DNA from: a virus
Direction: 5' to 3' (one strand)
UHGV virus genome: UHGV-0278189
DNA: 41,032 nt
Part shown: in pieces, positions 2,791-41,032 of the stretch
How the letters are laid out: each line of letters starts with the position of its first letter
How positions within the stretch are numbered: the first letter of the stretch is position 1
Translations under genes and position numbers: made by a program
The notes under the pieces: model-generated
Told to the model about the DNA's origin: nothing
Databases searched by the model: none
Seen by the model: only the letters and a program-made list of their open reading frames with translations

Positions 2791-3181
2791 CGTCTTTTCT
2801 CCCCGGAATTAACTCGCGTGGATTATCGGAACGGTGATAGAGCCATATACCAATACGCACAGCGACAATTGCTGACACGAATGCGCCTGCAGAGAAAACA
2901 ATCCCTTTTTCAAAAGAGTCCTGCGTGATGGTAGGGATCAGGCTGGCTATGCCGATAAGAATTGATGCTGCTGGTTTGTAAAAGAGAAGGCCGCAAAGAA
3001 AGCTGAGCATCGACAGGAGCACCCGGCGACGGATGGGGTACTCTACTGCAGAGGTAACAAAAATTACCGCCCCAGCCAAAGCCCCTAAAGCAACCTCCGG
3101 AGGGACACCTGCAATAACCGCAGCAAGAGAACCAAAACTAAGCAACTGATTTAATTGCTCACTTGTTACTTGAGCAGACAT
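2777..3181 (-). CDS. Holin-like membrane protein
   Basis: 134 aa with several hydrophobic helices; first gene of lysis cassette, preceded by 306-bp AT-rich non-coding region. Confidence 0.55.
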   Translation of the reverse strand: MSAQVTSEQLNQLLSFGSLAAVIAGVPPEVALGALAGAVIFVTSAVEYPIRRRVLLSMLSFLCGLLFYKPAASILIGIASLIPTITQDSFEKGIVFSAGAFVSAIVAVRIGIWLYHRSDNPRELIPGRKDDGNA

Positions 3182-3461
3182 ACTTTCTCCTGTTTACTAT
3201 CTATAAGCCAGTCAATTATTGATGACTAAACCCGCATAGTAAACCATATATGAATCATTATTGTTCCGTATCATATATCTCAATAAAAGTACTAATGATT
3301 TTACAGAACGAGCCAGCAGAGTGGGGGCAGTTGTACAGGAACCATAGACTTAATTTTGTATTTAATAATGCTATGGTGTAATAAACCTGAACATGTATTT
3401 AAAATACGTACTGATTCATGATAGAATTCAAAGATAACTTTTCACAAACTCCGTTTTTGAT

Positions 3462-3490
3462 ACCCGCAAAATATTGCGGGCTTTTTTTTA
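3462..3490. terminator. Hairpin at 3' end of tailspike gene (weak terminator)
   Basis: cccgcaaaatattgcggg with A/T runs on both sides; overlaps tailspike stop codon; T-run is on the + strand side so function on the - strand is uncertain. Confidence 0.4.
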
Positions 3491-7939: not shown

Positions 7940-8205
7940 TTTACATCGCACTCCTCTTGTGCCATAGTAATCGGGCACTGGCAAAATCCAGTGCCGGGAT
8001 TGGTCTCCCGGATTACTACAGAGGCACATATGCCGCATAAGCGGTTTTTTTATGTGTAAAGCGCACCTATTCTATGGTGGGCTGTGTGGGGGCACCGAAA
8101 GGTGCGCCGGGTTCCTTTGTAGCCGGTAAGACCAACTCTGCACAGTTCACCACCATCTGATTGGTCTCAGCGGTGGTGATTAACCTAACTACAAAGGTGA
8201 TCGCC

Positions 8206-8898: not shown

Positions 8899-8963
8899 CG
8901 GGCGGTGGCACAGGGATGTGCCTTTAAAATAATCATTGGCGATGTGATGTAGATTCGCGTAAT

Positions 8964-8980
8964 ATTACCTTACGGGTAAG
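8964..8980. promoter_or_regulatory. Operator-like palindrome TTACC-N5-GGTAA (copy 4)
   Basis: aTTACCttacgGGTAAg between antirepressor and 9039 gene. Confidence 0.6.
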
Positions 8981-9038
8981 AAAGCGTTTTTAATCTTCCC
9001 TTCAAAACGCGTCCTGTAGCCAAACATGGGAGGACGAA

Positions 9039-9671
9039 ATGAAAACAAATACAACAAGAAAAGCGATGCCATACATTATCCCAGAAGCAGATTTCGACAG
9101 AAAACTGAACATGTCTGAGAAGAACACTAGTCACACCGAAAGCTACTTAGCGAAAGGTGTGGTTGATTTCGTTCTTCCGGGATTCACAACACCTTATGGT
9201 TATCGCCTTGTAAAATCTTGTAATGGCGATCATTACAGAATGATTACTACCAGCGATACTCCAGAAACGGTGTATGCGGTTAAGTTAATCTTTCGGGAAG
9301 ATATCGTCGAAGCTAAAAGAACATGTACGCAGATCATGGTATGGCGTACGCCTAATGTTATTCATGACCGTGCTGTTCATGGTTTGCCTCAGATTTTTTT
9401 TCAGTTCTTTCTAGAGCAATATGCGATCGTTGTATCTGATGAGCAACAAACAATCGATGGGAGAAGATTCTGGGAAAGAATGATTTCTTGGGCTATAAAC
9501 ACCCCGGGATATAATGTATACGTTTCAGATGGCTCTGAAGAAGATAGACCTCTTAGCTTCATGACATCATGGGATGATTTCTATAGCCAGTGGGCTGATT
9601 TCTGTTGGGGCAGTGATAAAGATGTGCATACCCACAGACTACTGGTTATAAGCAAAGATAAACTGCATTAA
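9039..9671 (+). CDS. Hypothetical cytoplasmic protein (accessory/moron)
   Basis: 210 aa; GGGAGG RBS; followed by strong terminator; no family recognised. Confidence 0.6.
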   Translation: MKTNTTRKAMPYIIPEADFDRKLNMSEKNTSHTESYLAKGVVDFVLPGFTTPYGYRLVKSCNGDHYRMITTSDTPETVYAVKLIFREDIVEAKRTCTQIMVWRTPNVIHDRAVHGLPQIFFQFFLEQYAIVVSDEQQTIDGRRFWERMISWAINTPGYNVYVSDGSEEDRPLSFMTSWDDFYSQWADFCWGSDKDVHTHRLLVISKDKLH

Positions 9672-9676
9672 TAGAA

Positions 9677-9697
9677 GCCCGCAGCGCGGGCTTTTTT
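9677..9697 (+). terminator. Rho-independent terminator
   Basis: GCCCGC-agc-GCGGGC followed by TTTTTT. Confidence 0.8.
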
Positions 9698-9728
9698 GTG
9701 GACGAAACAAAAGTCAGTGCTACACTCA

Positions 9729-9756
9729 TTGACGCCACATTGAGGTGGCTTATAGA
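9729..9756 (+). promoter_or_regulatory. Putative sigma70 promoter for small secreted-peptide gene
   Basis: TTGACG (9729-9734), 16-bp spacer, TATAGA (9751-9756); lies between two terminators. Confidence 0.35.
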
Positions 9757-9769
9757 TGGAAATTTCACA

Positions 9770-9931
9770 ATGAAAAAAGCATTTGCTGCACTGTTCGTTT
9801 TGTTGTCTCTGGTAGCTTCAACTCAGGCCTTTGCCGGTCGTTGTCAGCACGACAGCGATACTGCCGCTGACGGCTCCCGCTGCGGTGGGCGTTCTGCGGA
9901 TTCCCGCCCGGGCGGCGGTGGCATTCGTTAA
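9770..9931 (+). CDS. Small secreted Cys-containing peptide (53-aa precursor)
   Basis: MKKAFAALFVLLSLVASTQAFA signal peptide with AxA site; ~31-aa Gly/Arg/Asp-rich mature part with 2 Cys; flanked by terminators; start chosen at internal ATG of ORF 9698..9931. Confidence 0.45.
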   Translation: MKKAFAALFVLLSLVASTQAFAGRCQHDSDTAADGSRCGGRSADSRPGGGGIR

Positions 9932-9936
9932 AAACA

Positions 9937-9954
9937 AGGCCGCGAAAGCGGCCT
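9937..9954. terminator. Bidirectional terminator
   Basis: aGGCCGC-gaaa-GCGGCCt hairpin; T-run on the - strand side (ttgttttt), serving the 9961-10812 gene. Confidence 0.65.
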
Positions 9955-9960
9955 GTTTGA

Positions 9961-10812
9961 TCACTGTGCAGTTTTCGCTGATCGATTTTCAGCTCTAAAT
10001 TCAAGAACCGTTTCAATATTTCTTTCCTTCAGCATATCAATAACATTTTTATTCATTTGACTATCACTGGTTAATAACTGGTAAACGTTGCTTCTCTCTT
10101 TATCAGAATTTTCTTTAACAGCTGCTTTGCATGCCAAATGCTTATTGAAATTTTCTACATCGCTAGTACAGGAATTTACGGCTGCTGATGAAATATCAGA
10201 CGCTGAAGAAACACCATCATCCAAACGTTTTATAGCATTTTCTATACATGAGTTAAGGGAATAAACGACAACTGAGCGATACCCTTCAGACGCACACCAT
10301 TCTAAATTTCTTGAAGGATCGAGTGGTTTTACTTCGCTGGATTGAATTAACTTGTCAAAAACTGACTTATATTCAATCTGTTTTTTATCTATAGCCCATA
10401 CTTCAGTAGCTGATTTATAATTCCCCGTATGCCTATTAACATCAAATCCATGTTTTATAAGCAAATCTGCCCATGAAAGATTTATTGATTCATTGTTATG
10501 AGGCCATTTTCCTGTCAGAACCGCCCCCATAGACCCCATATATCCGCCATATGATGGTATAGCACCATGGCTCAGTAACTTCTCAGCAACCACAGGGCAA
10601 TTAATTACATAAGAGGCGTAAAGCCCATTCCATAAAGCCCCTCTATAGTAATCGCCACGATTAGGTTCTTTTAAGTCGATAGCCTTTGATAATTGTTCAC
10701 ACGTTTTGCATGCATCAAAGTTATCCTTATTGCATTGCAATGAACTGGCGGCTGTAGGATTTACAGAGACTATTGAAAGCACTATGCCAAAAAACAAATT
10801 TATTTTTTTCAT
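9961..10812 (-). CDS. Secreted Cys-rich protein, AT-rich gene (possible superinfection-exclusion or lysogenic-conversion factor)
   Basis: 283 aa with Sec signal peptide (MKKINLFFGIVLSIVSVNPTAAS); many Cys; start 1 nt after stop of the 1129-aa gene; visibly AT-rich compared with neighbours. Confidence 0.65.
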   Translation of the reverse strand: MKKINLFFGIVLSIVSVNPTAASSLQCNKDNFDACKTCEQLSKAIDLKEPNRGDYYRGALWNGLYASYVINCPVVAEKLLSHGAIPSYGGYMGSMGAVLTGKWPHNNESINLSWADLLIKHGFDVNRHTGNYKSATEVWAIDKKQIEYKSVFDKLIQSSEVKPLDPSRNLEWCASEGYRSVVVYSLNSCIENAIKRLDDGVSSASDISSAAVNSCTSDVENFNKHLACKAAVKENSDKERSNVYQLLTSDSQMNKNVIDMLKERNIETVLEFRAENRSAKTAQ

Positions 10813-10813
10813 C

Positions 10814-13800
10814 CTATTTCATCTGCTCTTCAACTTTATTTAGTAATGGTGATATCGCCCACAGATTCTGAAAAGGTAGCATTTTACGGACAGCGTGGGT
10901 TTGCTGGCTGTCAAATTCTCCGTTAAGTACACCATTTGCAACCGTCGCGGCATCACCGCCAAGATCAAAGGTAGGACCAAGTAAAGCACCAATAGCATTA
11001 CGACTCTGAAACCTTGATACCGGAGGCGCACCAAACATCGCGCCAAGACCAAACCTACCGCCGCTTATGTTCTCAACGGTATTCAGCGGCTCAGAGAGCC
11101 AGCCAAGCATTCCGCCCCGGTCGATCCCCTCTTTCACAAGGTTATTCCAGCTGTAGTCGATATCGCGACCGCTTAACTTCTGTTTCATCATATAGACCAT
11201 TGAGCCAAGCGCAATCGTGCCAAGCGCACCAAGATAGAATGAAGCATCGCCCTGCTGGATACCAGATACCAACACCCTGTTATGCTGTGCGAAGATAAAC
11301 GTTTTGAACTGCGTGATCATCTTCCAGCCTTCTTTACTAAAAAACAGCGGTGTATCACCTACGCCAGGCGTTACAATCACTGAGTCTACATCTTTCAGCA
11401 CTGCAGACTGGAAAATCTCTCTAGCGAAACGGTCATCCCACAGATGACTATGCCCGGTTAACAGCCCGTCCATATCCTCTCCGTGCTTCCCGAATTGCTC
11501 CCCGATTCGGCGCAGAACATCTTCATTGATGCCGACCTGTGCCATCTTCCGCATTTCACTTTTGGCGAGCGTGCCACCAGCAGAAACCTGGCGAGCCGCG
11601 TCAAGTATCCTCGACTGCACTATCATCCCGGACCATGATTTAAGTGCGCTGTTCCACTGATTCATCAGCGTCCAGTTACCGAATTTCTGCGTCATCCAGT
11701 TCAGGCCTCGCTCAGCGGCGCTTCTCCGGCTATAGGGGTCAGTAAGATCCGCTATAGCCTTTGTACGCGTAGACAGGACATAATCAAGCCCAACGGCCAT
11801 TTCTCGCAAATCCCTGGTTGCAATTTTCACTGAGTCCATATTTTTAAGCATGCTTACCATTGGTCCGAGAGATTTTCTCAGGCCATGCTGCATCATCGGT
11901 CGCATCAGATCAGTTGCAGCGGAGACGGTCATTCCACCAAGCAAACGGAGGAAGTTAATATTCCTAGCAACTCGCCCGGCACGAACAAAGAAACTGCGTG
12001 GATCTTGAGGTGCGCCGTAAGTACCAAGCAGTCGGTCACGCATAGCCGTAATATCCCTAATATCAGCCTCCCGTTGCTTCTCAAGAGCTGCACGTCGTTT
12101 AGGTGTTTTAGCCTCTTTTATTAGCCGGGTATATTCCTCACTAACCTGACGGATTTGCTCCCCCATATCTTTACGGCCAAACTGCGCAGTCAGCTCAATT
12201 TCTGGTGCCACCTGCCGGAGATAACTTTCCATGATGTAGTTAACATCTGATTCAAGAAAATCTTCTATACGCTCATCAGGAATAAGCAGCGTTCGGCTTT
12301 TAGTGAAACCAGCCCGACCAACGAGTCTCTCTGGGATAATATCGGCTGGTACAAGCCCGGAAGGTGCGCCTATTATTTTATTCACGATCTCGTCAGCAGC
12401 GTCCTCTGCTTCCTCTCGGGATAGAGGCTCCATCTGCTTCAGTGCTCGCTCGCGGCTTGCATTCAGCCTTGTGGTTGAATTTGCCCGTTTTTGCAGTCGG
12501 CGAAGCTCAGAACGATATTTCCGTGGATTATCCAGCAACTCCATATGGCGCTGATAGACAGGAAGCTCACTCTTTGCCTGCGCTATATCATCAAGGCGTG
12601 TTTTAAGGTCAGAGCTTTCTTTCATCATTCTTGCCTGAAGTTTTTCTGATGAAGTCTCGGCCAACTCTTTTTCTATTCTTGTAAGACGCGCCTGTGTGTC
12701 AGTCTCCTGAGATATAAGCTTATTTCGTTTATCCAGTTCTTCCATGAGTAGAATTTTTTTACCAGACCATTTCTCCGCTTCAGCGATTTCACTAGCGAGA
12801 GCATCAGCGCGCGGTGCCGATTCCTCTGCAGTTTTTAGCAATGAATTTATCCTTTCAATTCGCTGACCTGCTTTGTCAGCACCTTTGGCACTAATCCCTT
12901 GTATCCAGTTGGCAATTCGCCCTCTGAATTCAGTGCGGTCGGAAAGTATCTTATCGAACTTATAAATGCGGGGAAGATAACTTTTCGCCGTCACGACATC
13001 GATATCCTCAGGAAGGATCCCCAGTTCCTGCATACGGGCTTTTGTGGTCTCGAAAATGGGGCGGATTCTGGCGGCTGCTTGTGAAACCTCAGGAATATCA
13101 CTCTGATCACCACGGCGCATAGCCATGCCAACAGCTTCATTGAAATCAATAAAGCTCATCCTCTTCACGCCGCGGGCGCTGACAGATTTGCTGTACTGCT
13201 GGTAAGCATCACGAGTGGCTTCCATCTGCTTATAAAGCATGGCGTCGTATTGCTTAATCTTAGTCTCGACTGCCGTAAACGTAGCCAACCCCTCATCATT
13301 TTTGGCGAAGAAATAGTTATTTTCGGCAAGCTGCTGGTTAATCTGACGGGAGACAAGAGATGGTGATTGCGCCAAGCGGCCAGCAGGAGTGACACTCAAC
13401 GTTTTGTTAGCAAGTCCAAGTCCAGCGAGCTGTTCCTGATCGAGTGTGGTATTGAAAACCTGAGCTGCACCAATGCTTTGAGGAGAATCCATACCTCGCA
13501 AATGATTACCTACTGAGTTAACCACTGCCTCGCGCGCGCTAGGTCCAGCAAGTAGCTGTGCACCAGCACCAAGGATCCCACCAACGAGAGCATCAACAAC
13601 AACGTTCGATACGCTCTCCATCGGTGAGCGAGCTTCCTGAGTGGCCTGCAATGCGGCCTCTGAAGCAACACTGCCAGCAGCATTGGCTAAAGCAAAACGT
13701 CCGGCTGTTTCTGCAATACGACCGCCACGAACGACAGCGCCGAACGGAATAAACATAGAAATCGCATTGAATGGATCTGCTAATCTCATTGCTACAGAAG

Positions 13801-14203
13801 AGACTGTACCAGCAAATCCCAAGCCTGAATTGTATTCCATGTCAGCTCTCTGCTGATCGATTCGATGTTTAATTGCCATTGTTTCTTCAGGCGAACCGGA
13901 GTTGATAAACGAATCTGCAAAATCTTCATAGCCTTTAATATCTGCTGCATCGTTATCAAATGGGTTATATCCTTCAATCCTGTCAAACTGACTGAAAGGA
14001 GCACTGGCAATAAAGCTACCCAGCGTGTTATCTATACGAAATGCTGCTTGTCTAGACCTTTGAACGCGTTGATCACTGGTAAATGGGTTCACAGCAGAAA
14101 GCAAAGAAGGTGTTTCCATATAGAAATTACTGTCATCAGGTGCTGCTATTTGCTGAATATCCTCGCCAAGCAACTCTTTAGGATCCTGTTCATATATCGG
14201 CAT
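10814..14203 (-). CDS. Large internal virion/ejection protein (T7 gp16-like position)
   Basis: 1129 aa; last and largest gene of the core-protein series after tail tube genes; start overlaps upstream gene stop. Confidence 0.5.
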   Translation of the reverse strand: MPIYEQDPKELLGEDIQQIAAPDDSNFYMETPSLLSAVNPFTSDQRVQRSRQAAFRIDNTLGSFIASAPFSQFDRIEGYNPFDNDAADIKGYEDFADSFINSGSPEETMAIKHRIDQQRADMEYNSGLGFAGTVSSVAMRLADPFNAISMFIPFGAVVRGGRIAETAGRFALANAAGSVASEAALQATQEARSPMESVSNVVVDALVGGILGAGAQLLAGPSAREAVVNSVGNHLRGMDSPQSIGAAQVFNTTLDQEQLAGLGLANKTLSVTPAGRLAQSPSLVSRQINQQLAENNYFFAKNDEGLATFTAVETKIKQYDAMLYKQMEATRDAYQQYSKSVSARGVKRMSFIDFNEAVGMAMRRGDQSDIPEVSQAAARIRPIFETTKARMQELGILPEDIDVVTAKSYLPRIYKFDKILSDRTEFRGRIANWIQGISAKGADKAGQRIERINSLLKTAEESAPRADALASEIAEAEKWSGKKILLMEELDKRNKLISQETDTQARLTRIEKELAETSSEKLQARMMKESSDLKTRLDDIAQAKSELPVYQRHMELLDNPRKYRSELRRLQKRANSTTRLNASRERALKQMEPLSREEAEDAADEIVNKIIGAPSGLVPADIIPERLVGRAGFTKSRTLLIPDERIEDFLESDVNYIMESYLRQVAPEIELTAQFGRKDMGEQIRQVSEEYTRLIKEAKTPKRRAALEKQREADIRDITAMRDRLLGTYGAPQDPRSFFVRAGRVARNINFLRLLGGMTVSAATDLMRPMMQHGLRKSLGPMVSMLKNMDSVKIATRDLREMAVGLDYVLSTRTKAIADLTDPYSRRSAAERGLNWMTQKFGNWTLMNQWNSALKSWSGMIVQSRILDAARQVSAGGTLAKSEMRKMAQVGINEDVLRRIGEQFGKHGEDMDGLLTGHSHLWDDRFAREIFQSAVLKDVDSVIVTPGVGDTPLFFSKEGWKMITQFKTFIFAQHNRVLVSGIQQGDASFYLGALGTIALGSMVYMMKQKLSGRDIDYSWNNLVKEGIDRGGMLGWLSEPLNTVENISGGRFGLGAMFGAPPVSRFQSRNAIGALLGPTFDLGGDAATVANGVLNGEFDSQQTHAVRKMLPFQNLWAISPLLNKVEEQMK

Positions 14204-16950
14204 TATTTGCCCCCTGCGTATATATTGCTCGGAAGGTAATTGGCTGAACCATAACCGAATGGTTTGGTCAGATCTGGAGGAGTATATCCATCTTTATTGC
14301 TGAACTGCGGCAGCGGATTGCCTTCTCTCCGCACTCTAGCCTCATCAACACGCTGTTGCTGGAACTGAATGGTTTGCCTGTACATTGGAGATGTCAGCTG
14401 ATCCGGCTTGAAACGAACAGGGAGACCATTTTCTCCAATATAATTTCTCGGTTCTATCGCTCCGTTTGCGTCAGGCTGTAAAACCATAACAGCATAACTC
14501 CTATCCCTTGCCGTAAGGCCATCAGAAACAAGTATTAAGTCCGTATCACTGCGAGGACCGCCAAAGGATTTTGATTTAAGCTCGCGTTTTTCCTGCTCCC
14601 ACTGCCCCTGTATCCAGTTACCAGCACCATTATTTACTCCGTACAATGCCTCAGGTGCATACTTCATAACCTCTGCTTTGCCATTAACCGTAGAAACTCC
14701 CCAGGTGGTTCTGATCATGGCATTGGTCATTTTCTCAGCCTGTTCTGCATCGCCACCTGTCTGTACAAAGTTAGCATCGTAAATTGTCTGGTAATCTCGC
14801 TGATAGGCCGCATTTGATTTTCCTGGATCGGTAATATCCGGAGACCACGAACCAAAGGAAGTCAGACTGCTGGCGTTATTTTGTGCAGCAGTTACCCTCG
14901 CCGCGACATATTTTTTGTCTCGCATGGCAGTGGAAAGCATCTGTTTCATTCGGTCATCCTGTTGGAACACCTGACTGTAAGCCATATCAACAGCCTTATC
15001 CTCCGGCACGCCAGCGCGGGAATAATCGTAAACCTTGCCATAAAATGCCATCGTACTTTTATCAAGTGTTGCCGCTGCCGCCGGATTATTATCGAATAAC
15101 TGACCGTAGAATTTTGCCATCGGGACAACCAGCGCAGGATCTCTTGATGTTGCTCCACTGTTAAGCATTGTTTTAACCTGAGTTGGTATCATGCCGCTTT
15201 TAGTTGTGACGGTGACCAGTGTATTGATGCTCTGCGGATCAGATATGGAAAACGAAGGCGCGATATCCTGCGCGAAATAACGGTCTACCGCTGCCTGATT
15301 GTTTTTGTCGTTCGGGTCCAGCGGGAAGTTATTTTGCATTGAAGACACGAACCTGTTTCTTCCCTGCTGAATCTCCCACTCCCTATCCATCTCTTTAAAT
15401 TTGGCCTGCATTTTCTCCCAGCGTTGCTGGTTAGCAGCAAATCCAGGAGCATTTGGATCCTGTGGACGTAAACGTTCAAGAATGTCTTGTCGTCCTTCTG
15501 GAGTGAGGTCTTTAGCGGCACCAATGACACCTCCATATTGTATCTGCGCCTGCATATCCTTCCACTTCATAGCGCCAATGCGCGGACCATTGGCCCGGAT
15601 AAAATCGTCCTCAGAAGGTAACTTCTCAGGTTTCAATCCTTCATCAAGGGCTGAATATGCATCTTTAACTACGGTGCTAAGCTGGTCCGCATACTGCTGG
15701 CGGTACTGATTTCTCAGCTCATTAGCCTGCCTCAATGCCTGTATTTGCATTTGAGGGCTCATAGCATCAAATGCCGCATTGCCCGTATAACGCTTAGGTG
15801 AATCAAGGTTAGTTAGACCAAGGGCTGCCGAGATACCAGTTTCAAGCTGTTCGGTGCTATAAGGCATACTGCCATTTTCGTGTTTAATAATCCCAGCACA
15901 TAAAGCAGCTAGTGTCTTTGGGTTAGAGATATCAAGCTGATCATTCTCCCCAACACCAAGCTCACCACACAATGCCCTAATATAAGCATCAGTATTATTA
16001 CCATCACTAGCCGGAGCATAGCGATTAACAATCTCGCTAACGGTGTCATAGCCTTGACGCTGGTAAGACAACATATTTTTACCCAACGCGCGGATTCCAT
16101 GCTCAGGGGTAGCAAACGTTGCAAAACGTCCATCGCTACCGATCTGACCTTCCCACGGGTTAGATTTGCTCGCTTCAATATTACCAGGGTTATTATTACG
16201 TAAACCACGAGCATCCAATGAATTACCATGTGATATTGCACGACTCACACCATCAAGATCCCCTGGCTCTCCATTAACCTGAAGAAACTCGTTGTATTTT
16301 TGAGCGATATTTCCTATCCATGCTTGCTGCCCCATTTGTTCCTTGAGCTGAGTTTTCTGCTGAACACGCCACTCATCAGGAAGCCCATGCGCATCAGCGT
16401 ATTGATCAATAGATTCAAATCGCTGCTTGGCTAAATCGACAAATGCTTGGTTATCGCTATATAGCCCCGCAGACTGAGTGACAGCCAATGCATTTCCTGA
16501 CAAATACGTTTGATCTTGGAATTGCTGAAACTGCCCAACTTCATATCGACGTGCCTGATTGTAATAAGACTGCATAGACTGCTGGAGTTGAAAGGATAAT
16601 TTATTCCTTTCCTCACTTTCAGGGATTGAGCCTAATAATGCCTGAGCCCTTTCCTGCATATTTTTCATAACAGCGTCACTCTGACCAAGAGCGTTTTTAC
16701 CCTGTTTAGAAATCAGCCCATTTTCAGGGTTGTTAATCTGGTCATCTGCAAATTGGTTAAATTGCAGTAACGCCTCCTGGGCCATAGCAACATTCGCTTT
16801 CTGCCTGGCTTCACCATATGCCACCGCATACTGATCTGCGACATTCGCCAGCACCTGACCTGCTTGAGGAACATCGAAGGTCTGAAAACCACCGGTTTGC
16901 ACACCACGACTTTGCACCTGGCGTCCGGATGTAGTAGGAACAACAGGCAT
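14203..16950 (-). CDS. Internal virion/ejection protein (T7 gp15-like position)
   Basis: 915 aa; Gln-rich; coupled to flanking genes. Confidence 0.5.
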   Translation of the reverse strand: MPVVPTTSGRQVQSRGVQTGGFQTFDVPQAGQVLANVADQYAVAYGEARQKANVAMAQEALLQFNQFADDQINNPENGLISKQGKNALGQSDAVMKNMQERAQALLGSIPESEERNKLSFQLQQSMQSYYNQARRYEVGQFQQFQDQTYLSGNALAVTQSAGLYSDNQAFVDLAKQRFESIDQYADAHGLPDEWRVQQKTQLKEQMGQQAWIGNIAQKYNEFLQVNGEPGDLDGVSRAISHGNSLDARGLRNNNPGNIEASKSNPWEGQIGSDGRFATFATPEHGIRALGKNMLSYQRQGYDTVSEIVNRYAPASDGNNTDAYIRALCGELGVGENDQLDISNPKTLAALCAGIIKHENGSMPYSTEQLETGISAALGLTNLDSPKRYTGNAAFDAMSPQMQIQALRQANELRNQYRQQYADQLSTVVKDAYSALDEGLKPEKLPSEDDFIRANGPRIGAMKWKDMQAQIQYGGVIGAAKDLTPEGRQDILERLRPQDPNAPGFAANQQRWEKMQAKFKEMDREWEIQQGRNRFVSSMQNNFPLDPNDKNNQAAVDRYFAQDIAPSFSISDPQSINTLVTVTTKSGMIPTQVKTMLNSGATSRDPALVVPMAKFYGQLFDNNPAAAATLDKSTMAFYGKVYDYSRAGVPEDKAVDMAYSQVFQQDDRMKQMLSTAMRDKKYVAARVTAAQNNASSLTSFGSWSPDITDPGKSNAAYQRDYQTIYDANFVQTGGDAEQAEKMTNAMIRTTWGVSTVNGKAEVMKYAPEALYGVNNGAGNWIQGQWEQEKRELKSKSFGGPRSDTDLILVSDGLTARDRSYAVMVLQPDANGAIEPRNYIGENGLPVRFKPDQLTSPMYRQTIQFQQQRVDEARVRREGNPLPQFSNKDGYTPPDLTKPFGYGSANYLPSNIYAGGK

Positions 16951-17516
16951 CAGTAACCTCCTATTTTGAATCGGGAGTCAGAATTCATAAAACCTGAGTT
17001 AGATAACATTGGCGTGTTTCCTTGCTTACTAATCGGATTGATACTTCCGCCACCCAACTTATATGCACCGTACGCTTTTAGTGGTGCCGTTAACAAAGTG
17101 CTGGTCATCGATGATTTAGCAGCCGACTGAGCAGCAGCCCCCTGTGCCTGAGCATTCATTCCCTGAACCTGATACCCATATGCCTCACGCTGAGCGTTAT
17201 TCACTGTCGTTAACGCATCAAGAGTGCCGAACTGAGCATTATCCGCAAAAACGTCAAGAGCTGTTCCGCTACTTAATTCCGCACCGGTAGCCCCCATAGT
17301 GGCCGCCGCAGTGCCTGAGCGTTGACGCATTTCACGACGACGCTGATCCGCTTCAATATTCCCACGATTGATTGAATCCTGTGCCTGAGCTTCAGCAATT
17401 TCAGCATTCCGATCAGCTACGGCTGACTGGTATTTTGCCTGCTTGCTCTGGCTGTACATTGATGCGGCTGTGGATGCCACTGTGACGGCAACCAAAGCGA
17501 TGGCTGGGTTACACAT
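16950..17516 (-). CDS. Internal virion protein (T7 gp14-like position)
   Basis: 188 aa; N-terminal hydrophobic helix then Ala/Gln-rich. Confidence 0.45.
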   Translation of the reverse strand: MCNPAIALVAVTVASTAASMYSQSKQAKYQSAVADRNAEIAEAQAQDSINRGNIEADQRRREMRQRSGTAAATMGATGAELSSGTALDVFADNAQFGTLDALTTVNNAQREAYGYQVQGMNAQAQGAAAQSAAKSSMTSTLLTAPLKAYGAYKLGGGSINPISKQGNTPMLSNSGFMNSDSRFKIGGY

Positions 17517-26584: not shown

Positions 26585-26661
26585 GTGGCATTAGCTCAGT
26601 TGGACAGAGCAACCGCCTTCTAAGCGGTTGGTCGCAGGTTCGAATCCTGCATGCCACGCCA
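26585..26661 (+). tRNA. tRNA-Arg (anticodon UCU), phage-encoded
   Basis: 77 nt; acceptor stem GTGGCAT/ATGCCAC, D-arm GCTC..GAGC, anticodon loop CTTCTAA, T-arm GCAGG-TTCGAAT-CCTGC, discriminator G and encoded CCA. Confidence 0.85.
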
Positions 26662-34836: not shown

Positions 34837-34858
34837 AACCATATTTTTCAGTAAGTAA

Positions 34859-34882
34859 GCCGCCTTATGGCGGCTTTTTTAT
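34859..34882 (+). terminator. Rho-independent terminator after repressor gene
   Basis: GCCGCC-ttat-GGCGGC followed by TTTTTTATT. Confidence 0.8.
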
Positions 34883-34927: not shown

Positions 34928-34956
34928 TTGACATCAAACCATATACGCATAATTAT
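34928..34956 (+). promoter_or_regulatory. Putative pL-like sigma70 promoter
   Basis: TTGACA at 34928-34933; AT-rich -10 candidates ~16-17 bp downstream; overlapped by operator copy 9. Confidence 0.35.
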
Positions 34957-35144: not shown

Positions 35145-35444
35145 ATGAACGTTAATCAGCAGAAAAATCTTCAAAAAATCATGCTGGCATTCGACAAGGA
35201 CTACCGCCTGTCAGAACAGCTATATGACCGACAAGTTGAACTGATTGAGAGCATCCGACTTCATCAACTGTCCTCAACTTTCGACGTTGTAACAGGCAAA
35301 GGCGTTCGTCAGGAAGTGCTGGAGGCTGCTAAAGACAGCCCTGAGTTCGAAGAACTGATGGATGCCTACCGGCGCGAGGCAATGGCAATTATCGCCCGCT
35401 GGGATCTGGCGGATCAGCTTGATGGACAGAGGGACGCGGCATGA
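35145..35444 (+). CDS. Hypothetical early leftward-operon protein
   Basis: 99 aa from ATG 35145 with GGGAGGG RBS (ORF track starts 35130); 4-nt overlap with next gene. Confidence 0.55.
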   Translation: MNVNQQKNLQKIMLAFDKDYRLSEQLYDRQVELIESIRLHQLSSTFDVVTGKGVRQEVLEAAKDSPEFEELMDAYRREAMAIIARWDLADQLDGQRDAA

Positions 35445-36262
35445 ATCCGGGAATTTATTTCGATATCAGCAACGAAGACTACCACGCCGGTGACGGCGTG
35501 AGTAAGTCGCAACTGGACATGGTTGCCAAGAATCCGGCGCTTCTTAAATGGGTTCAGGCAGCACCAGAAGACGAAGAGAAAAAGTCTGCACTGGATATGG
35601 GAACCGCATTGCACTGTCTGCTTCTGGAGCCTGGAGAGTTCGACAAACGCTTCATTGTTTCACCGAAATTCGATCGTCGGACGAAACAAGGTAAAGCTGA
35701 CGAAGAGGCATTTCTTCGTGATGTGGCGGATATGGGGATTACGGTACTTGATGCCGAGCAGTGGCGGAAACTGGAGCTGATGCGTGATAGCGCAATGGCT
35801 CACCCGGCGGCACGCTGGATGTTGGAAGCACCTGGTTACTGCGAAGCGTCAATGTACTGGAACGATGAAGAAACGGGTGAGTTGTGCCGAATTCGTCCAG
35901 ACAAATGGCTGAACGAGCACAACGTGATCATCGACGTGAAAAAGGTTGCAGATATGGACCGTTTTGCACGTCACATCGAGGAATTCCGCTACCACGTGCA
36001 GGACGCAATGTACCGCGAAGGCGCAATGAGGGTTACTGGTCAGCCGCATGGTTTTTTCTTTCTTGCCGTGAGCGAAAGCATTGATTGTGGTCGGTATCCG
36101 GTACGCGTGTTCGAGCTGGATGCGCCGGATGTCGATGCCGGGCACGCTCTGTTCCGCCGGGATCTGAATACCTATCACGAATGCCGCATCAACGATGAGT
36201 GGGGCGGAGTGGAAATTATTAAACGCCCTGACTGGGCACGTAAACAGGATATGTACGTATGA
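35441..36262 (+). CDS. RecE-like PD-(D/E)XK exonuclease
   Basis: 273 aa; motif VIIDVKKV and overall resemblance to RecE C-terminal nuclease domain (recollection); coupled to RecT-like gene. Confidence 0.55.
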   Translation: MNPGIYFDISNEDYHAGDGVSKSQLDMVAKNPALLKWVQAAPEDEEKKSALDMGTALHCLLLEPGEFDKRFIVSPKFDRRTKQGKADEEAFLRDVADMGITVLDAEQWRKLELMRDSAMAHPAARWMLEAPGYCEASMYWNDEETGELCRIRPDKWLNEHNVIIDVKKVADMDRFARHIEEFRYHVQDAMYREGAMRVTGQPHGFFFLAVSESIDCGRYPVRVFELDAPDVDAGHALFRRDLNTYHECRINDEWGGVEIIKRPDWARKQDMYV

Positions 36263-37140
36263 GCAATGATATCGCAATCACATCACAACCAGGCGCAACT
36301 GTAGGCACTGCTGCGGCAATCTTCAGCCCCGAGGGAATGAATCAACTGGTGCGTTTCGCTGAGTTGATGTCACAAAGCAAAGCGACTGTACCGAAACATC
36401 TTGAAGGCAAACCTGCCGATTGCCTGGCGGTGACCATGCAGGCGGCACAGTGGGGAATGAACCCTTTCGCCGTGGCGCAGAAAACGCATGTGGTAAACGG
36501 AACGTTAGGCTACGAAGCACAGTTGGTAAACGCGGTCGTATCCTCGTCAAGCCTGCTGGCGACACGCCTGAATTATCGCTGGAGCGGTGACTGGTCGAAT
36601 GTTAACGGCAAAACAGATAAATCACCGAATCTGACGGTAACTGTGTCAGCAGTTCTTAAAGGAGAAGCAGAACCACGTGAGCTTACCATCAGTATGGCGC
36701 AAGCCGGAGTGCGTAACTCTCCATTGTGGGAACAGGATCCTCGCCAGCAGCTTGCCTATCTTTGCACGAAACGATGGGCTCGCCTGCACGCTCCTGATGT
36801 ACTTCTCGGTGTTTACACCCCTGACGAATTACAGGAAACGGCACCGCGCGTTGAACGAGACATTACTCCGCAAACAACTACTGCTGCGGGAATGAACAGT
36901 CTGATCAACGCTAAACCAGTGAAAAAGCCTGATGAGCAAACGCGTAAAGCGGATAGCCGTGATCCAGAAGAAATGCTGATGGCCTTTACCAGCGCAGCGA
37001 TGAATTACAGCACTGTCTCCGAACTGGATAAGGCTTACAAATACATTGCACAAAAACTTTCAGATGATGACGAACTGCTGGCAAAAGCAACCGACGTTTA
37101 CAGCGTTCGTCGGGAAGAATTAAACGAAACATCTATGTAA
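36259..37140 (+). CDS. RecT-family single-strand annealing protein
   Basis: 293 aa; family resemblance to RecT (recollection); directly downstream of exonuclease with 4-nt overlap. Confidence 0.6.
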   Translation: MSNDIAITSQPGATVGTAAAIFSPEGMNQLVRFAELMSQSKATVPKHLEGKPADCLAVTMQAAQWGMNPFAVAQKTHVVNGTLGYEAQLVNAVVSSSSLLATRLNYRWSGDWSNVNGKTDKSPNLTVTVSAVLKGEAEPRELTISMAQAGVRNSPLWEQDPRQQLAYLCTKRWARLHAPDVLLGVYTPDELQETAPRVERDITPQTTTAAGMNSLINAKPVKKPDEQTRKADSRDPEEMLMAFTSAAMNYSTVSELDKAYKYIAQKLSDDDELLAKATDVYSVRREELNETSM

Positions 37141-37189: not shown

Positions 37190-37438
37190 ATGAAAGGTGC
37201 ATTAGGTAAGAAGGAACTCCTGGCGGTGGTGCCACTGTCATGGAGCACTATCGACCGTATGGAGCGCGCAGGGGAATTTCCTAAACGCTGGTATATCACT
37301 GACAAACGCTGCGCATGGAACCGTGACGAAGTTGAGCGTTGGCTTGATGAACGTCAGGCAGCAAGTCCGGCAGAGTTCCAGGGTAAAAAACCTCCTGTTC
37401 AGCAACGTGTATATCGTCCCGTGAGCAACGCTGCATGA
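37190..37438 (+). CDS. AlpA-like excisionase / transcriptional regulator
   Basis: 82 aa; LLAVVPLSWSTIDRMERAGEFPKRWYITDKRCAWNRDEVERWL fits AlpA/Xis-like HTH pattern. Confidence 0.65.
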   Translation: MKGALGKKELLAVVPLSWSTIDRMERAGEFPKRWYITDKRCAWNRDEVERWLDERQAASPAEFQGKKPPVQQRVYRPVSNAA

Positions 37439-37547
37439 GTGCGCTGCTAAGGCACTGGAGCAAATGGTCAGGATGGTACTTATTCCTGGCCTCTGTTTCA
37501 GCATGGCTTTATCTGCTGGCATTAATTTTCAGAGAGGGTTGGATTAA

Positions 37548-37847
37548 GTGAGAAAGTTAAGCCGACTTGAAAAATATCACATGAATAAGGTTTCAATGCG
37601 TAGTCCGTCAAAGATTGTCGCCGTTACTCCTGCGGCGATAGAGATCGAAAAACGCGCGATTGAAAGAGAAAAAAAAGGGCAGTTCCGCATTGCCGCTCAC
37701 CTTTGGCTTCAGTGTATGGATGTTGCTTCTGGTGATGTTGAGCGAGCAAGGATTGCGGTTCGCAGGGACCAATGTATCACAAAAGGTAACGGCCTTCGCC
37801 GTGGCGACTATAGCGGCATAGGATGTTGTGGGGTGGTTTATGAATAA
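37548..37847 (+). CDS. Hypothetical small regulator (PerC-like, tentative)
   Basis: 99 aa from GTG 37548 with GAGAGGG RBS; EKKGQFRIAAHLW loosely resembles the PerC-family core; weak. Confidence 0.4.
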   Translation: MRKLSRLEKYHMNKVSMRSPSKIVAVTPAAIEIEKRAIEREKKGQFRIAAHLWLQCMDVASGDVERARIAVRRDQCITKGNGLRRGDYSGIGCCGVVYE

Positions 37848-38943
37848 TCAAAACAATAATGTAAAAGGTAATATCATGAGCAAGGTAGGCGATTATTTCT
37901 TTGAATTTCCCGCATCACGAGGAACGCAGGGAAGCACTGTAATACTTATGATGACAGTACCAGCAAGAGCACTATCGAGAGTATTGGCAACCGACAATAC
38001 GGGAAGTACCCTTGAACGTTCTCAACGTGAAATTAATCCAACCAGGGTAAAAAAGTTTTATCAATATTTAGTCAACGCTTACGAGAAAAAGGAACCATTT
38101 ATTGTTCCACCATTGGTCGGAAATTGTAACTCAGAAATAGAGTTCCATGAGATTGGAAATACTAATGTCGGTTTAGCTAGATTTCCTATGGATGCAGAAA
38201 TAAAATTATTTGATGGACAGCATCGTGCTGCAGGATTAGCTGAGTTCTGCCGTAATTATGGCGAAACAATTATGATTCCTCTTATGCTTACGCATAACCT
38301 TCCTTTGAAGGCGCGTCAGCAGTTCTTTTCTGACATTAATAATAATGTTTCAAAACCATCTGCAGCAATTAATATGGCGTATGACGGACGAAACGATGTT
38401 GCCCAAGAAATGGTGTCTTTCCTGTCGCAACATGACACTTTTGCAGAAGTCACTGACTTCGAGCACAACGTTGTTCCGTCAAAGTCAAACATGTGGGTGA
38501 GTTTCAAAGCATTAAGTGATTCAACATCAAAATTTTGTATTCATAATGGGAAAAAACTAGAAATTGGTAACATCGAGTCAGTATGGGAATCATGGTTATG
38601 TCTTACACAACTAGAAGCAATTCGCCATGGTACAAAGCAATCAGAATACAAAAGAGAATATATCCAGTTTCATGCAGTGATGATTAACGCTTTTGGCTAT
38701 GCTGTTCAGCAAATGATGGTTAATCACTCAATAAAAGAAATAATTTCAATGATTGAAACATTATGTGCAAATACTGACTTCGCAGAAAGAGAGAATTTTT
38801 TCCTAATGGATAATTGGGTTGGGATCTGCACGAAAGCAAGCCAGGAAAAACTATCAGTTATTGCCAATGTAGCAGCACAGAAAGCGGCAGCAAACAGGCT
38901 GATACAAGCCTTTACCAAAGGAAGTCTGGGAGCAGAACAATGA
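37840..38943 (+). CDS. DGQHR-motif protein (DndB-like, ParB/Srx-fold family)
   Basis: 367 aa from first ATG 37840 (ORF track starts GTG 37828; alternative ATG 37876); contains FDGQHRAAGLAEF; AT-rich; stop overlaps next start (ATGA). Confidence 0.65.
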   Translation: MNNQNNNVKGNIMSKVGDYFFEFPASRGTQGSTVILMMTVPARALSRVLATDNTGSTLERSQREINPTRVKKFYQYLVNAYEKKEPFIVPPLVGNCNSEIEFHEIGNTNVGLARFPMDAEIKLFDGQHRAAGLAEFCRNYGETIMIPLMLTHNLPLKARQQFFSDINNNVSKPSAAINMAYDGRNDVAQEMVSFLSQHDTFAEVTDFEHNVVPSKSNMWVSFKALSDSTSKFCIHNGKKLEIGNIESVWESWLCLTQLEAIRHGTKQSEYKREYIQFHAVMINAFGYAVQQMMVNHSIKEIISMIETLCANTDFAERENFFLMDNWVGICTKASQEKLSVIANVAAQKAAANRLIQAFTKGSLGAEQ

Positions 38944-39587
38944 AAAAATACACGCTAATCTATGCAGATCCACCCTGGGTATACCGGGACAAAGCCGCAG
39001 ATGGTAATCGCGGTGCCGGTTTTAAATATCCGGTTATGAGTGTGCTGGATATCTGCCGCCTTCCTGTGTGGGATTTGGCCGATGAAAACTGTCTGTTGGC
39101 CATGTGGTGGGTGCCAACACAACCACTCGAAGCACTAAAAGTTGTTGAAGCCTGGGGATTTCGTCTGATGACCATGAAGGGCTTCACGTGGATAAAATGT
39201 GGTAGTCGACAACCAGATAAACTGGTTATGGGGATGGGACACATGACTCGCGCCAACAGTGAAGATTGCCTGTTTGCGGTAAAGGGAAAACTACCTCCGC
39301 GCATTAATGCAGGTATCGTTCAGTCATTTACCGCACCGCGGCTTGAGCATTCAAGAAAACCAGATGTCGTTCGTGAAAAACTTGTGCAATTGTTAGGCGA
39401 TGTTTCTCGCATTGAACTGTTCGCCCGCCAAACGTCTCATGGCTTCGATGTTTGGGGTAATCAGTGCGAAGACCCAGCAGTGCAACTACACCCTGGATAC
39501 GCGTTGTATATTGCCGGATTAACAAATGCATTCAGCAATGCTCCGCTGTCACCAACAGACAACCAGGGGCGGGAGCGTGCAGCATGA
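38940..39587 (+). CDS. MT-A70-family DNA methyltransferase (probable N6-adenine)
   Basis: 215 aa from ATG 38940 (MKKYTLIYADPPWVY); DPPW catalytic motif near N-terminus; ATGA overlaps with both flanking genes. Confidence 0.7.
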   Translation: MKKYTLIYADPPWVYRDKAADGNRGAGFKYPVMSVLDICRLPVWDLADENCLLAMWWVPTQPLEALKVVEAWGFRLMTMKGFTWIKCGSRQPDKLVMGMGHMTRANSEDCLFAVKGKLPPRINAGIVQSFTAPRLEHSRKPDVVREKLVQLLGDVSRIELFARQTSHGFDVWGNQCEDPAVQLHPGYALYIAGLTNAFSNAPLSPTDNQGRERAA

Positions 39588-39778
39588 ACAGGGCATCACC
39601 AGCAGATTTAAGGAAATGCCTTGAAACTGCAAACATGCTTGCACACAGCGGGATCAGGTTTGTTCCAATTCCCGCTGTCACTGATGCTGAATTTGCAACA
39701 CTGTCAGCAATATTCACAGATAAAATTGAATCACTGGCAGCAGAAGCCGAGATGGAAGAAAATCAGCAGAATAATTAA
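39584..39778 (+). CDS. Small acidic protein, third gene of the DGQHR/methyltransferase operon
   Basis: 64 aa (MNRASPADLRK...EENQQNN); start overlaps methyltransferase stop; ends 3 nt before convergent integrase stop. Confidence 0.45.
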   Translation: MNRASPADLRKCLETANMLAHSGIRFVPIPAVTDAEFATLSAIFTDKIESLAAEAEMEENQQNN

Positions 39779-39781
39779 ACG

Positions 39782-41032
39782 TTATTCCCCCGCCATCCAC
39801 TTCTCAAACTTCGACGGGGAGAACGGAATCAGATCCGTATGCTCCCCGTCAATCCAGGAATCAATCATATCGGCCCACTGCTGCAACATGTAGGCGCGCT
39901 GTCTGGCGTATTCCGCTTTGTTATATACGGCGCGCACACCTTTCTGCTCATGTGCCAGAGCCTTTTCAATCCAGTCTGAAGGATAACCAGCCTCATGCAA
40001 CAATGTACTGGCTGTACGGCGCATATCGTGTACGGTGAAGCCCTGAATATGCTCACCATCTTCATTTATTATTTTCACCGTTCTGTCGATCAGAGAGTTC
40101 AGCGCGGCATTAGATAATGGCTTCCGGAAATTGTAACGACCAGGAACCAGATATTCACTTCCACCAGCGCACATCTGCAATCCGACCAATATATCCTGAG
40201 CCTGTTTAGGCAGGTAAATAACGTGCGCCCGGCTTCCCTTCATGCGGTCTGAAGGAATGGTCCATGTCCATTTTTTAAAATCTATTTCATCCCACGTTGC
40301 GTTGGTGAATTCGCCTTTACGAACCATAGTGATAAGCACCAGCTTTAAAGCCATTTTCATAGTGCCCATAGCACCAATGGCATCCAGCGTGCGGAAGAAC
40401 AGGCCAATTTCTTCTGGTGTCAGTGTTCGCTCTCTTGGTTTAAATATGGCGATAGACGAAGGTTTAATGTCAGCCGCAGGATTAAACAAACCATGACCAC
40501 GGTCATTGGCGTGACGGTATACGCTACTGATGATCTCCCTGGCCTGCACTGCTGTTGCCCAGCCACCGCGTTCGACAATCCGGTCACACAAATCACGAAC
40601 CATCGATGTGGTAATTTCAGCCATCATTTTATTGCCAAGAACCGGAAGTATGTCACGGTCGATCACCGCCTGTTTCATTGCGCGGGTACTGTCAGCCAGG
40701 ATGACGTGTTTCATATAACTGTCGGTATGTACCGCAAACGTCTCGGCACCACGAATCTTTTTGATACCGTCACGTTTAGCCGCAGCCGGTGACTGGCCTG
40801 CTTTAAGCAGCTTCTTTGCAGCAATCAGTTCTTCTCGCGCTTCTGCCAGGCTGATACCGTCACGCCCATACTGCCCGATTACCAGCGTTTCGCGGCGACC
40901 GTTGATACGGTAGTCGTAGCGAAACGAGACCGTGCCTGACGTAAGCACAGCTACATACAGCCCGTCACGATCGGAGACCTTGTACAGTTTGTCCTGCGGC
41001 TTGAGGTTTTTTAATTTTGTATCGGTAAGCAC
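39782..41032 (-). CDS. Tyrosine integrase (N-terminus cut by window edge)
   Basis: 416 aa in window; C-terminal catalytic region HDMRRTASTLLHEAGYPSDWIEKALAHEQKGVRAVYNKAEY with the conserved Tyr; N-terminal LTDTKLKNLKP typical of P4-type integrases. Confidence 0.85.
   Translation of the reverse strand: MLTDTKLKNLKPQDKLYKVSDRDGLYVAVLTSGTVSFRYDYRINGRRETLVIGQYGRDGISLAEAREELIAAKKLLKAGQSPAAAKRDGIKKIRGAETFAVHTDSYMKHVILADSTRAMKQAVIDRDILPVLGNKMMAEITTSMVRDLCDRIVERGGWATAVQAREIISSVYRHANDRGHGLFNPAADIKPSSIAIFKPRERTLTPEEIGLFFRTLDAIGAMGTMKMALKLVLITMVRKGEFTNATWDEIDFKKWTWTIPSDRMKGSRAHVIYLPKQAQDILVGLQMCAGGSEYLVPGRYNFRKPLSNAALNSLIDRTVKIINEDGEHIQGFTVHDMRRTASTLLHEAGYPSDWIEKALAHEQKGVRAVYNKAEYARQRAYMLQQWADMIDSWIDGEHTDLIPFSPSKFEKWMAGE

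Follow-up and report, generated by a model that had tools for sequence, protein, structure and literature searches.

A DndB-like DGQHR gene inserted in front of a resident MT-A70 methyltransferase gene in a phiV10-type prophage

We analysed the virus genome UHGV-0278189 (41,032 nucleotides, called the window throughout), which carries three consecutive genes encoding a DGQHR/DndB-like protein, an MT-A70 methyltransferase and a small acidic protein of the DUF1382 family. An earlier interpretation made from the letters alone (the sequence-only reading) had proposed that they form a candidate novel module. We find that the locus is made of two backbone genes and one inserted DGQHR gene, and that it is not a three-gene system. 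Other elements of that proposal were accurate. The three open reading frames (ORFs) are intact on the plus strand, they overlap by ATGA start/stop pairs at both junctions (DGQHR/MT-A70 and MT-A70/DUF1382), and they occupy the variable end of an operon between an AlpA-like excisionase gene and int. The domain calls (DGQHR/DndB-type, MT-A70, small acidic protein) are also correct according to the Pfam and NCBIfam profiles. The main features are as follows (aa, amino acids).

37856..38942: inserted cassette of ~1.09 kb, AT-rich (blastn breakpoints against phiV10 at 37855 and 38943)
37876-38943, plus strand: DGQHR/DndB-like protein, 355 aa (from the first ATG, 37840-38943, 367 aa)
38940-39587, plus strand: MT-A70 N6-adenine methyltransferase, 215 aa, DPPW motif at residues 10-13
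39584-39778, plus strand: DUF1382 (PF07131), small acidic protein, 64 aa, pI 4.5, in a variable slot after MT-A70 (the equivalent slot in locus L003 is 2888-3547)

One inserted gene and two backbone genes

The comparison with phage phiV10 delimits the insertion. This phage has the same operon end in the order PerC, methyltransferase, DUF1382 and integrase (p34-p33-p32), with the stop of PerC overlapping the start of the methyltransferase gene. Outside the cassette, the DNA identity to phiV10 is 97-98% at this end of the operon. The cassette, absent in phiV10, spans from the PerC stop to codon 2-3 of the methyltransferase gene, and the alignment of the junctions gives an insert of ~1.09 kb with flanks ATGA(C/A)TAA and AAATACAC. 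The methyltransferase now begins with MKKYTL, versus MTKKYTL in phiV10, its ATG being provided by the terminal ATGA of the cassette. The GC content of the cassette is 38.5% versus 48% for the window. We found the cassette in 21 of 5,426 complete Escherichia coli genomes; in each of them its identity is at least 99% and this MT-A70 gene follows. We conclude that the DGQHR gene was acquired on its own, as a cassette that landed exactly at the methyltransferase start codon. The sequence-only reading had described the whole trio as AT-rich. This holds for the DGQHR gene (GC 39.0%, and 32% at third codon positions), which is the sole clearly AT-rich member, and does not hold for MT-A70 (49.5%) or DUF1382 (42.6%) in a window at 48.2%. 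Its range also started at 37548, which is the GTG of a PerC-family gene that was missing from its list.

Phage SPN1S of Salmonella shares the same operon end (0035-0031) and, unlike phiV10, has a DGQHR gene at the same position, in the order PerC-DUF1317-DGQHR-MT-A70. It is not the direct donor of the cassette, because its DGQHR protein is only 76% identical to that of the window and because DUF1317 is also present. We considered the possibility that an ancestral DGQHR gene was lost in phiV10. This is less likely: the GC content of the cassette is far from that of its flanks, the cassette is limited to one near-identical lineage of E. coli, and the SPN1S gene at this position is divergent and accompanied by DUF1317. 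The small DUF1317 gene overlaps the DGQHR start in E. coli lambdoid prophages as well as in SPN1S, and is absent from the window. Three examples of this arrangement are located as follows.

L036, 5882-6004: DUF1317 gene upstream of DGQHR
L039, 2346-2504: DUF1317 gene upstream of DGQHR
L130, 3846-4004: DUF1317 gene upstream of DGQHR

The distribution of the three genes speaks against a module. The full trio is restricted to the lineage of 21 genomes mentioned above, whereas 539 of the 5,426 genomes carry the MT-A70 segment. Hence the trio fails to co-occur in other genomes, which is one of the observations that the sequence-only reading had named beforehand as able to overturn it. In addition, phiV10 has PerC, the methyltransferase and DUF1382 without the DGQHR gene, and DUF1382 can be swapped for a Ser/Thr phosphatase in relatives.

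The MT-A70 gene is a resident backbone gene and encodes a known kind of enzyme. The protein matches PF05063 at model positions 1-172 of 172 (E = 5.7e-22, 78.9 bits for a cutoff of 23.9). It is 97% identical to phiV10 p33, 81% to gp05 of the Stx2a phage PA28 (over residues 2-191) and 78% to the SPN1S enzyme. In 96% of its close relatives, it is PerC that lies upstream. This enzyme is close to the already characterised Stx2a-phage type (M.EcoPA8orf6770P / M.EcoGV with PNB-2, PMC10810198). The likeness involves the catalytic region, the proximity to int, the translational coupling to the upstream gene and the DUF1382 gene that follows, an order also found in PA28. The differences concern the partner: the upstream gene is PerC in phiV10 and DGQHR in the window, the C-terminal 24 residues of the window enzyme differ from those of the Stx2a-phage enzyme, and a tblastn search of the window with PA28 gp06 (PNB-2 by position) gave no homolog (best E = 0.09).

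The Stx2a-phage enzyme type co-purifies with PNB-2, the product of its upstream gene, and in an S-adenosylmethionine-consumption assay it prefers 16S rRNA and is weak on DNA (PMC10810198). An earlier study, as cited in that article, found GATC methylation upon overproduction. It could be that the MT-A70 enzyme of the window modifies 16S rRNA, with the DGQHR protein replacing PNB-2 as the substrate-directing subunit, as the high identity over residues 2-191 and the coupling of an upstream gene in Stx phage and window alike would suggest. Yet the C-terminus, which has been linked to the pairing with PNB-2 (PMC10810198), is where the two enzymes diverge. There is no PNB-2 homolog in the window, PerC and not DGQHR precedes most close relatives of the enzyme, and DGQHR genes elsewhere pair with classical DNA methyltransferases (Dam D12 and C5, see below). 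The modified rRNA base itself was never mapped in PMC10810198. We regard an rRNA-directed pair as very improbable.

The third gene, DUF1382, belongs to the family of lambda Orf63. It matches PF07131 (E = 1.4e-30, 105.7 bits for a cutoff of 27) and the structure of Orf63 (PDB 8DSB, E = 5.8e-13), and is 48% identical to PA28 gp04. Orf63 forms dimers and is an early protein encoded in the exo-xis region (PMC10869804), and the window protein is likewise small, acidic and encoded in the early-left region. It is, however, a distant homolog, and other genes take its place in related prophages. About 371 E. coli genomes have DUF1382 in the slot after MT-A70, where others carry a hypothetical gene or one for a NinI-like Ser/Thr phosphatase. 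The phages PAS61 and BP9 have another gene than DUF1382 after MT-A70 (a phosphatase in PAS61), and a different small gene follows MT-A70 in SPN1S. DUF1382 is a backbone gene in a variable slot.

The DGQHR protein and its DndB and DpdB relatives

The start of the DGQHR gene is more likely at 37876 than at 37840, because the former is the RefSeq start and because homologs and PHROG 7901 begin at the same methionine. The resulting protein can be divided into an N-terminal domain of ParB/Srx-fold NTPase type, with the DGQHR motif at residues 113-117, and a C-terminal helical domain with an R260-x5-H266 motif. The match to the Pfam DndB family is strong (PF14072, E = 3.5e-46, 158.3 bits for a cutoff of 29.1), as is the one to the DGQHR domain (TIGR03187, 192.4 bits for a cutoff of 58.85), and the motif is conserved inside the ParB/Srx-fold domain, which is a defining feature of the family. 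In the comparison table for this protein the values are 8.1 for PadC, 7.1 for pNOB8 ParB-N, 5.7 for Sulfiredoxin and 5.3 for KorB. The helical domain has no clear match, and a sequence search of the PDB with the profile of the DGQHR family gave nothing at E up to 1. The family comprises 840 representatives at 50% identity (E up to 0.001). On these profile matches, we assign the protein to the DndB/DpdB class of ParB/Srx-fold putative NTPases.

This class includes proteins with known roles in DNA modification. DndB is an autoregulating, promoter-binding repressor of dndCDE that limits the level of phosphorothioation (PMC4507180). DpdB is a ParB-like ATPase with a DGQQR motif that is needed for DNA modification by DpdA, with which it forms no stable complex (PMC10164549). 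The window protein shares with both the ParB/Srx-fold domain, the DGQ(H/Q)R motif, the helical C-terminal domain and the position of its gene beside that of a DNA-modifying enzyme. It differs from them in genetic context, which is a phage early operon instead of a chromosomal defence island, and in its neighbour, which is a methyltransferase. The sequence-only reading had noted the lack of Dnd and Dpd partner genes, and we agree for what was covered: PADLOC, Pfam and NCBIfam revealed none among the proteins of the region (no dndCDE, no dndA/iscS, no TGT-like dpdA, no dpdC), and none is annotated in phiV10, whereas the window segments unmatched in phiV10 were not scanned. The only PADLOC matches were to DndB and to a generic type II methyltransferase, with no system recognised.

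The similarity to DndB leads to another possible explanation, where the protein would be a DndB-like regulator timing the operon via an operator, or a mimic interfering with the Dnd, Dpd or Ssp systems of the host. These host systems use related ParB-fold proteins, DndB itself regulates by binding promoters (PMC4507180), and a regulator acting on DNA would be indifferent to the family of the methyltransferase encoded downstream. The matches to the DndB equivalog (TIGR03233, E = 1.3e-31) and to the PADLOC DndB model (E = 2.3e-37) go in the same direction. Yet the equivalog score of 110 bits is far under the cutoff of 328, such that the protein is not a true DndB by this NCBI model. A consensus scan revealed no promoter-like site in the cassette or just upstream, and there are no inverted repeats at 37400-37900. 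The DndB box TACGN10CGTA is not enriched in the window (10 matches for 8.6 expected) and never occurs near the cassette, although the phage protein could use another site. We find this explanation improbable.

Domains of the ParB/Srx fold are also known from GmrSD, SspE and Osa, where they work as nucleases or NTPases (PMC5512222, PMC4619093), and DndB has been described as a ParB-like domain joined to HEPN (PMC3632139). The DGQHR protein might then be the effector of an exclusion or restriction-like system against unmethylated or foreign DNA, in which the methyltransferase would protect the DNA of the phage. The R-x5-H motif at 260-266 is compatible with this idea. Among homologs, however, H266 is invariant and R260 is not conserved. 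The Pfam search detected no nuclease domain, and PADLOC finds no system. The sequence of DGQHR does not co-vary with the family or specificity of the methyltransferase, one or the other gene is frequently absent, and the operon is shared with recombination and excision genes that are presumably off in the lysogen. The missing nuclease domain, the lack of co-variation and the frequent absence of either gene make this the least likely of the alternatives.

Methyltransferase genes next to DGQHR genes and the role they suggest

We examined the neighbourhood of DGQHR genes in 31 loci from species-representative genomes, 80 close viral contigs and 79 loci ranked by how similar they are to a distant family member, to which annotated phage and plasmid records were added. 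Genes were called with a home-made caller with start trimming, and five seed families of methyltransferases were searched. In 57 of 115 loci, a methyltransferase gene adjoins the DGQHR gene or is separated from it by a single gene, compared with 5 matches elsewhere in the ~7 kb flank of each locus. Dereplication at 90% identity of DGQHR resulted in 49 clusters, among which 10 have a methyltransferase at position +1, 5 at +2, 1 at -1 and 1 at -2. The bias towards downstream positions is significant (14 of 49 clusters at +1 or +2 versus 2 of 47 at -1 or -2, Fisher p = 0.0019). We conclude that, within our samples, the recurrence of a methyltransferase gene after DGQHR is genuine. A literature search for mentions of 'DGQHR' found no description of such pairs in phages.

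Downstream neighbours on the DGQHR strand come from five families: MT-A70, D12 Dam, PF05869, PF01555 and C5 (PF00145). Neighbours of the first three were confirmed by Pfam, as was the C5 neighbour in a Vibrio phage, and those of PF01555 were assigned by motif and by homology to the seed sequence. An ATGA overlap joins the majority of directly adjacent pairs, and a GGAGG-like ribosome-binding site is found at the end of many DGQHR genes. The order is retained in relatives that are 30-40% identical (Rheinheimera, Shewanella and a Vibrio phage). In one lineage (L049-L078, L005, L006), the two genes are separated by that of a protein of 154 or 178 aa with two or three helix-turn-helix (HTH) repeats, located ~0-520 bp downstream of the DGQHR gene, and the shorter form of this multi-HTH protein has a Cys-rich C-terminus. 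There, the methyltransferase switches between MT-A70, PF05869 and PF01555 among near-identical pairs of DGQHR and multi-HTH linker. Inside one cluster at 90% identity, DGQHR does not co-vary with the family of the methyltransferase.

The most fitting description of this gene order is a split, DndB-type variant of a known theme that associates a ParB fold with a methyltransferase. Fusions of the two are enriched in prophages (PMC12704722), loci with ParB, terminase and methyltransferase genes have been described in phages (PMC4738411; see also PMC5512222), and the role proposed for such combinations lies in counter-restriction or in the handling of phage DNA. Here, in contrast with the fusions, the two functions are encoded by separate and translationally coupled genes, and the ParB-fold half belongs to the DndB type (PF14072) instead of PF02195. 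Unlike the loci with terminase, it adjoins int in the early-left operon.

Orphan methyltransferases are a main route by which phages and plasmids escape restriction, and how their action on incoming DNA can be fast enough is poorly understood. Our favoured reading, to which we give a little less than an even chance, is that the DGQHR protein acts as a DpdB/DndB-like, NTP-dependent, DNA-binding accessory or regulator of the methylation of phage DNA, directed against host restriction. The protein and the methyltransferase would be translated early from one shared message, after infection or induction. In an NTP-dependent manner, the former would bind DNA and either promote or limit the methylation of the phage genome, and the phage would thereby escape restriction. 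The layout of the genes, the insertion, the fold, the distribution and the counts of neighbours are observed; the NTPase activity, the binding to DNA, the effect on methylation and the timing of expression are what we infer for this protein. An action directed at the DNA instead of the enzyme would explain why five families are tolerated without co-variation. DpdB, which aids DpdA although the two form no stable complex, would be a fitting precedent for a partner able to accept swaps of methyltransferase family. The sequence-only reading had offered two roles for the trio, self-methylation with a DNA-binding or regulatory partner and modification-dependent exclusion. The gene order fits the former better, and DGQHR is indeed followed significantly often by a DNA methyltransferase, but the trio itself is not conserved.

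Several observations weigh against a role of the DGQHR protein in methylation. Of the 539 E. coli genomes with the MT-A70 segment, 518 lack DGQHR. Reciprocally, in 35 of 49 clusters neither of the two genes that follow DGQHR belongs to one of the five seed families. The large lambdoid lineage of E. coli has a TraR-like gene downstream of DGQHR instead, a Klebsiella lineage has a ParB-HTH gene upstream, and some Buttiauxella-type loci have psiA downstream; like the 35 clusters, these three cases go against a strict partnership. Our gene calling and the search with five seed families are crude, and the 49 clusters are not phylogenetically independent. Methyltransferase genes tend to be int-proximal in early-left operons, and this slot order alone could produce the directional bias. 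A helper indifferent to the family of the enzyme cannot rely on specific contacts between proteins, because the five enzymes are unrelated. Finally, there was no fusion between DGQHR and a methyltransferase among the 10 longer or offset-domain proteins drawn from the top 150 representatives. The same 10 proteins include a fusion of a PAPS-reductase (DndC-like) with DndB (P0262, 697 aa), which ties the DndB-domain family physically to a DNA-modification enzyme.

The same patterns can be explained if the genes are independent cargo. DGQHR would then be a solitary, early, ParB-like DNA-binding switch, and its adjacency with methyltransferases would reflect shared slots. Such a protein might reprogramme the transcription of the host or of the phage, as does HerB, a ParB-like protein of plasmid leading regions that reprogrammes host transcription (PMC13370423), or it might counter host defences. 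In most lineages DGQHR and the methyltransferase are each found alone. The neighbours of DGQHR are varied (TraR-like, HNH, PsiA, RdgC, ParB-HTH, multi-HTH), the slot after MT-A70 is variable too, and the absence of co-variation within a cluster is expected for unrelated genes. This explanation does not readily account for the strong enrichment in methyltransferases at +1 and +2, for their rarity in the rest of the flanks or for an order kept across deep divergence and five families of enzymes. We consider it the main rival of our favoured reading, possible if rather unlikely. If it were correct, the genes would be ordinary mosaic cargo at an integration-proximal hotspot of phages.

Plasmid homologs are relevant to both views. 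We found DGQHR homologs (~43% identity) in 1,063 plasmids of PLSDB, of which 882 are conjugative. In the IncL/M plasmid pIT-Kpn-09/2015 (L129, 5989-7272), the DGQHR gene is beside RadC/JAB, HTH and DUF4942 genes, with an antirestriction gene and ssb a few kb away, a region that seems to be a leading region. In this plasmid, the only one examined, no methyltransferase of the recognised families is next to the DGQHR gene, as one would expect from independent cargo. Many plasmids of 63.5 kb, which we take from their size to be pOXA-48-like, have a DGQHR homolog split by IS1. Both contexts, the phage early operon in the window and the plasmid region with the antirestriction gene and ssb, are presumably regions expressed first, which supports our favoured reading. 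A plasmid enzyme, M.EcoGIX, is known to shield incoming DNA from restriction (PMC4288162).

A broader version of our favoured reading, which is speculative and to our mind rather doubtful, is that DGQHR ParB-fold NTPases are family-indifferent helpers or governors of the methyltransferases of mobile elements. An NTP-driven DNA clamp and an orphan methyltransferase would form a two-gene counter-restriction module for the first minutes after entry of temperate phages, and conjugative plasmids such as those of the pOXA-48 group would have a related version in their leading regions. Were DndB-like proteins to assist or gate methylation, the principle of DpdB and DndB, i.e. an NTP-dependent DNA-binding partner for a DNA-modifying enzyme, would extend from rare modifications to ordinary methylation. 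It would also provide a function for a family carried by numerous enterobacterial prophages and by some thousand plasmids, mostly conjugative, including carbapenemase plasmids.

Two other types of neighbours were observed. In loci L023 and L024, the second gene downstream of DGQHR encodes a protein with a deviant Walker A motif (KGGIGKT or KGGQGKT), which by eye resembles a ParA ATPase. Given such neighbours, some DGQHR proteins may act as analogues of partition ParB. A protein of ~220 aa starting with '...IFN.EMVRAILDG.KTQTRR' recurs beside DGQHR, after it in L009 and L222 and before it in L012. It matches phrog_874 (unknown function) and looks ASCH/PUA-like by eye, with no match in Pfam.

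The prophage backbone

The window is a prophage of the phiV10/epsilon15 type (Uetakevirus) adjoining guaA: the region matches E. coli APEC E19035 with 100% identity, and in that genome guaA is located on the far side of the integrase gene. The other features at this end are the following.

34857-34876: terminator-like hairpin directly upstream of the promoter-like site (phiV10 has an annotated terminator at the equivalent place)
34928..34956, plus strand: promoter-like site TTGACA-17-AATTAT (consensus scan only)
35441-36262, plus strand: PD-(D/E)XK nuclease
36259-37140, plus strand: Bet/RecT
37190-37438, plus strand: AlpA-family excisionase/regulator (PF05930, E = 3.1e-5; same annotation in phiV10 and SPN1S)
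37435-37551, plus strand: 38-aa membrane ORF (ATGA/GTGA overlaps with AlpA and PerC; its phiV10 homolog, p35, carries a membrane-protein annotation)
37548 (GTG) or 37596 (RefSeq start) to 37847, plus strand: PerC-family regulator (PF06069, E = 6e-7; phrog_868, E = 1.6e-61)
39782..41032, minus strand: P4-type tyrosine integrase (PF00589, PF13356), convergent with the operon

The promoter-like site probably heads an early-left operon that ends with the three genes. Overlapping starts and stops also couple the nuclease with Bet, AlpA with the membrane ORF and the latter with PerC, in a chain interrupted by gaps of 49 nt between Bet and AlpA and of 28 nt between PerC and DGQHR. The overlaps hence do not single out the trio, because other genes of the operon overlap likewise.

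The prophage is a mosaic relative of phiV10. The segments of the window without a blastn match to this phage are 1-1256, 3207-6172, 7061-7933, 8910-17161, 30328-31240 and 32478-33596, and the unmatched block of 8 kb (8910-17161) probably holds divergent virion genes. Matches to Rfam above the gathering score revealed isrK (7975-8051) and C4 antisense RNA (8070-8157), both on the plus strand. In P1/P7-type phages this pair is an immunity RNA that controls the expression of the antirepressor. The prophage also carries a tRNA-Arg gene (anticodon TCT) at 26585-26661 on the plus strand, found by both ARAGORN and Rfam.

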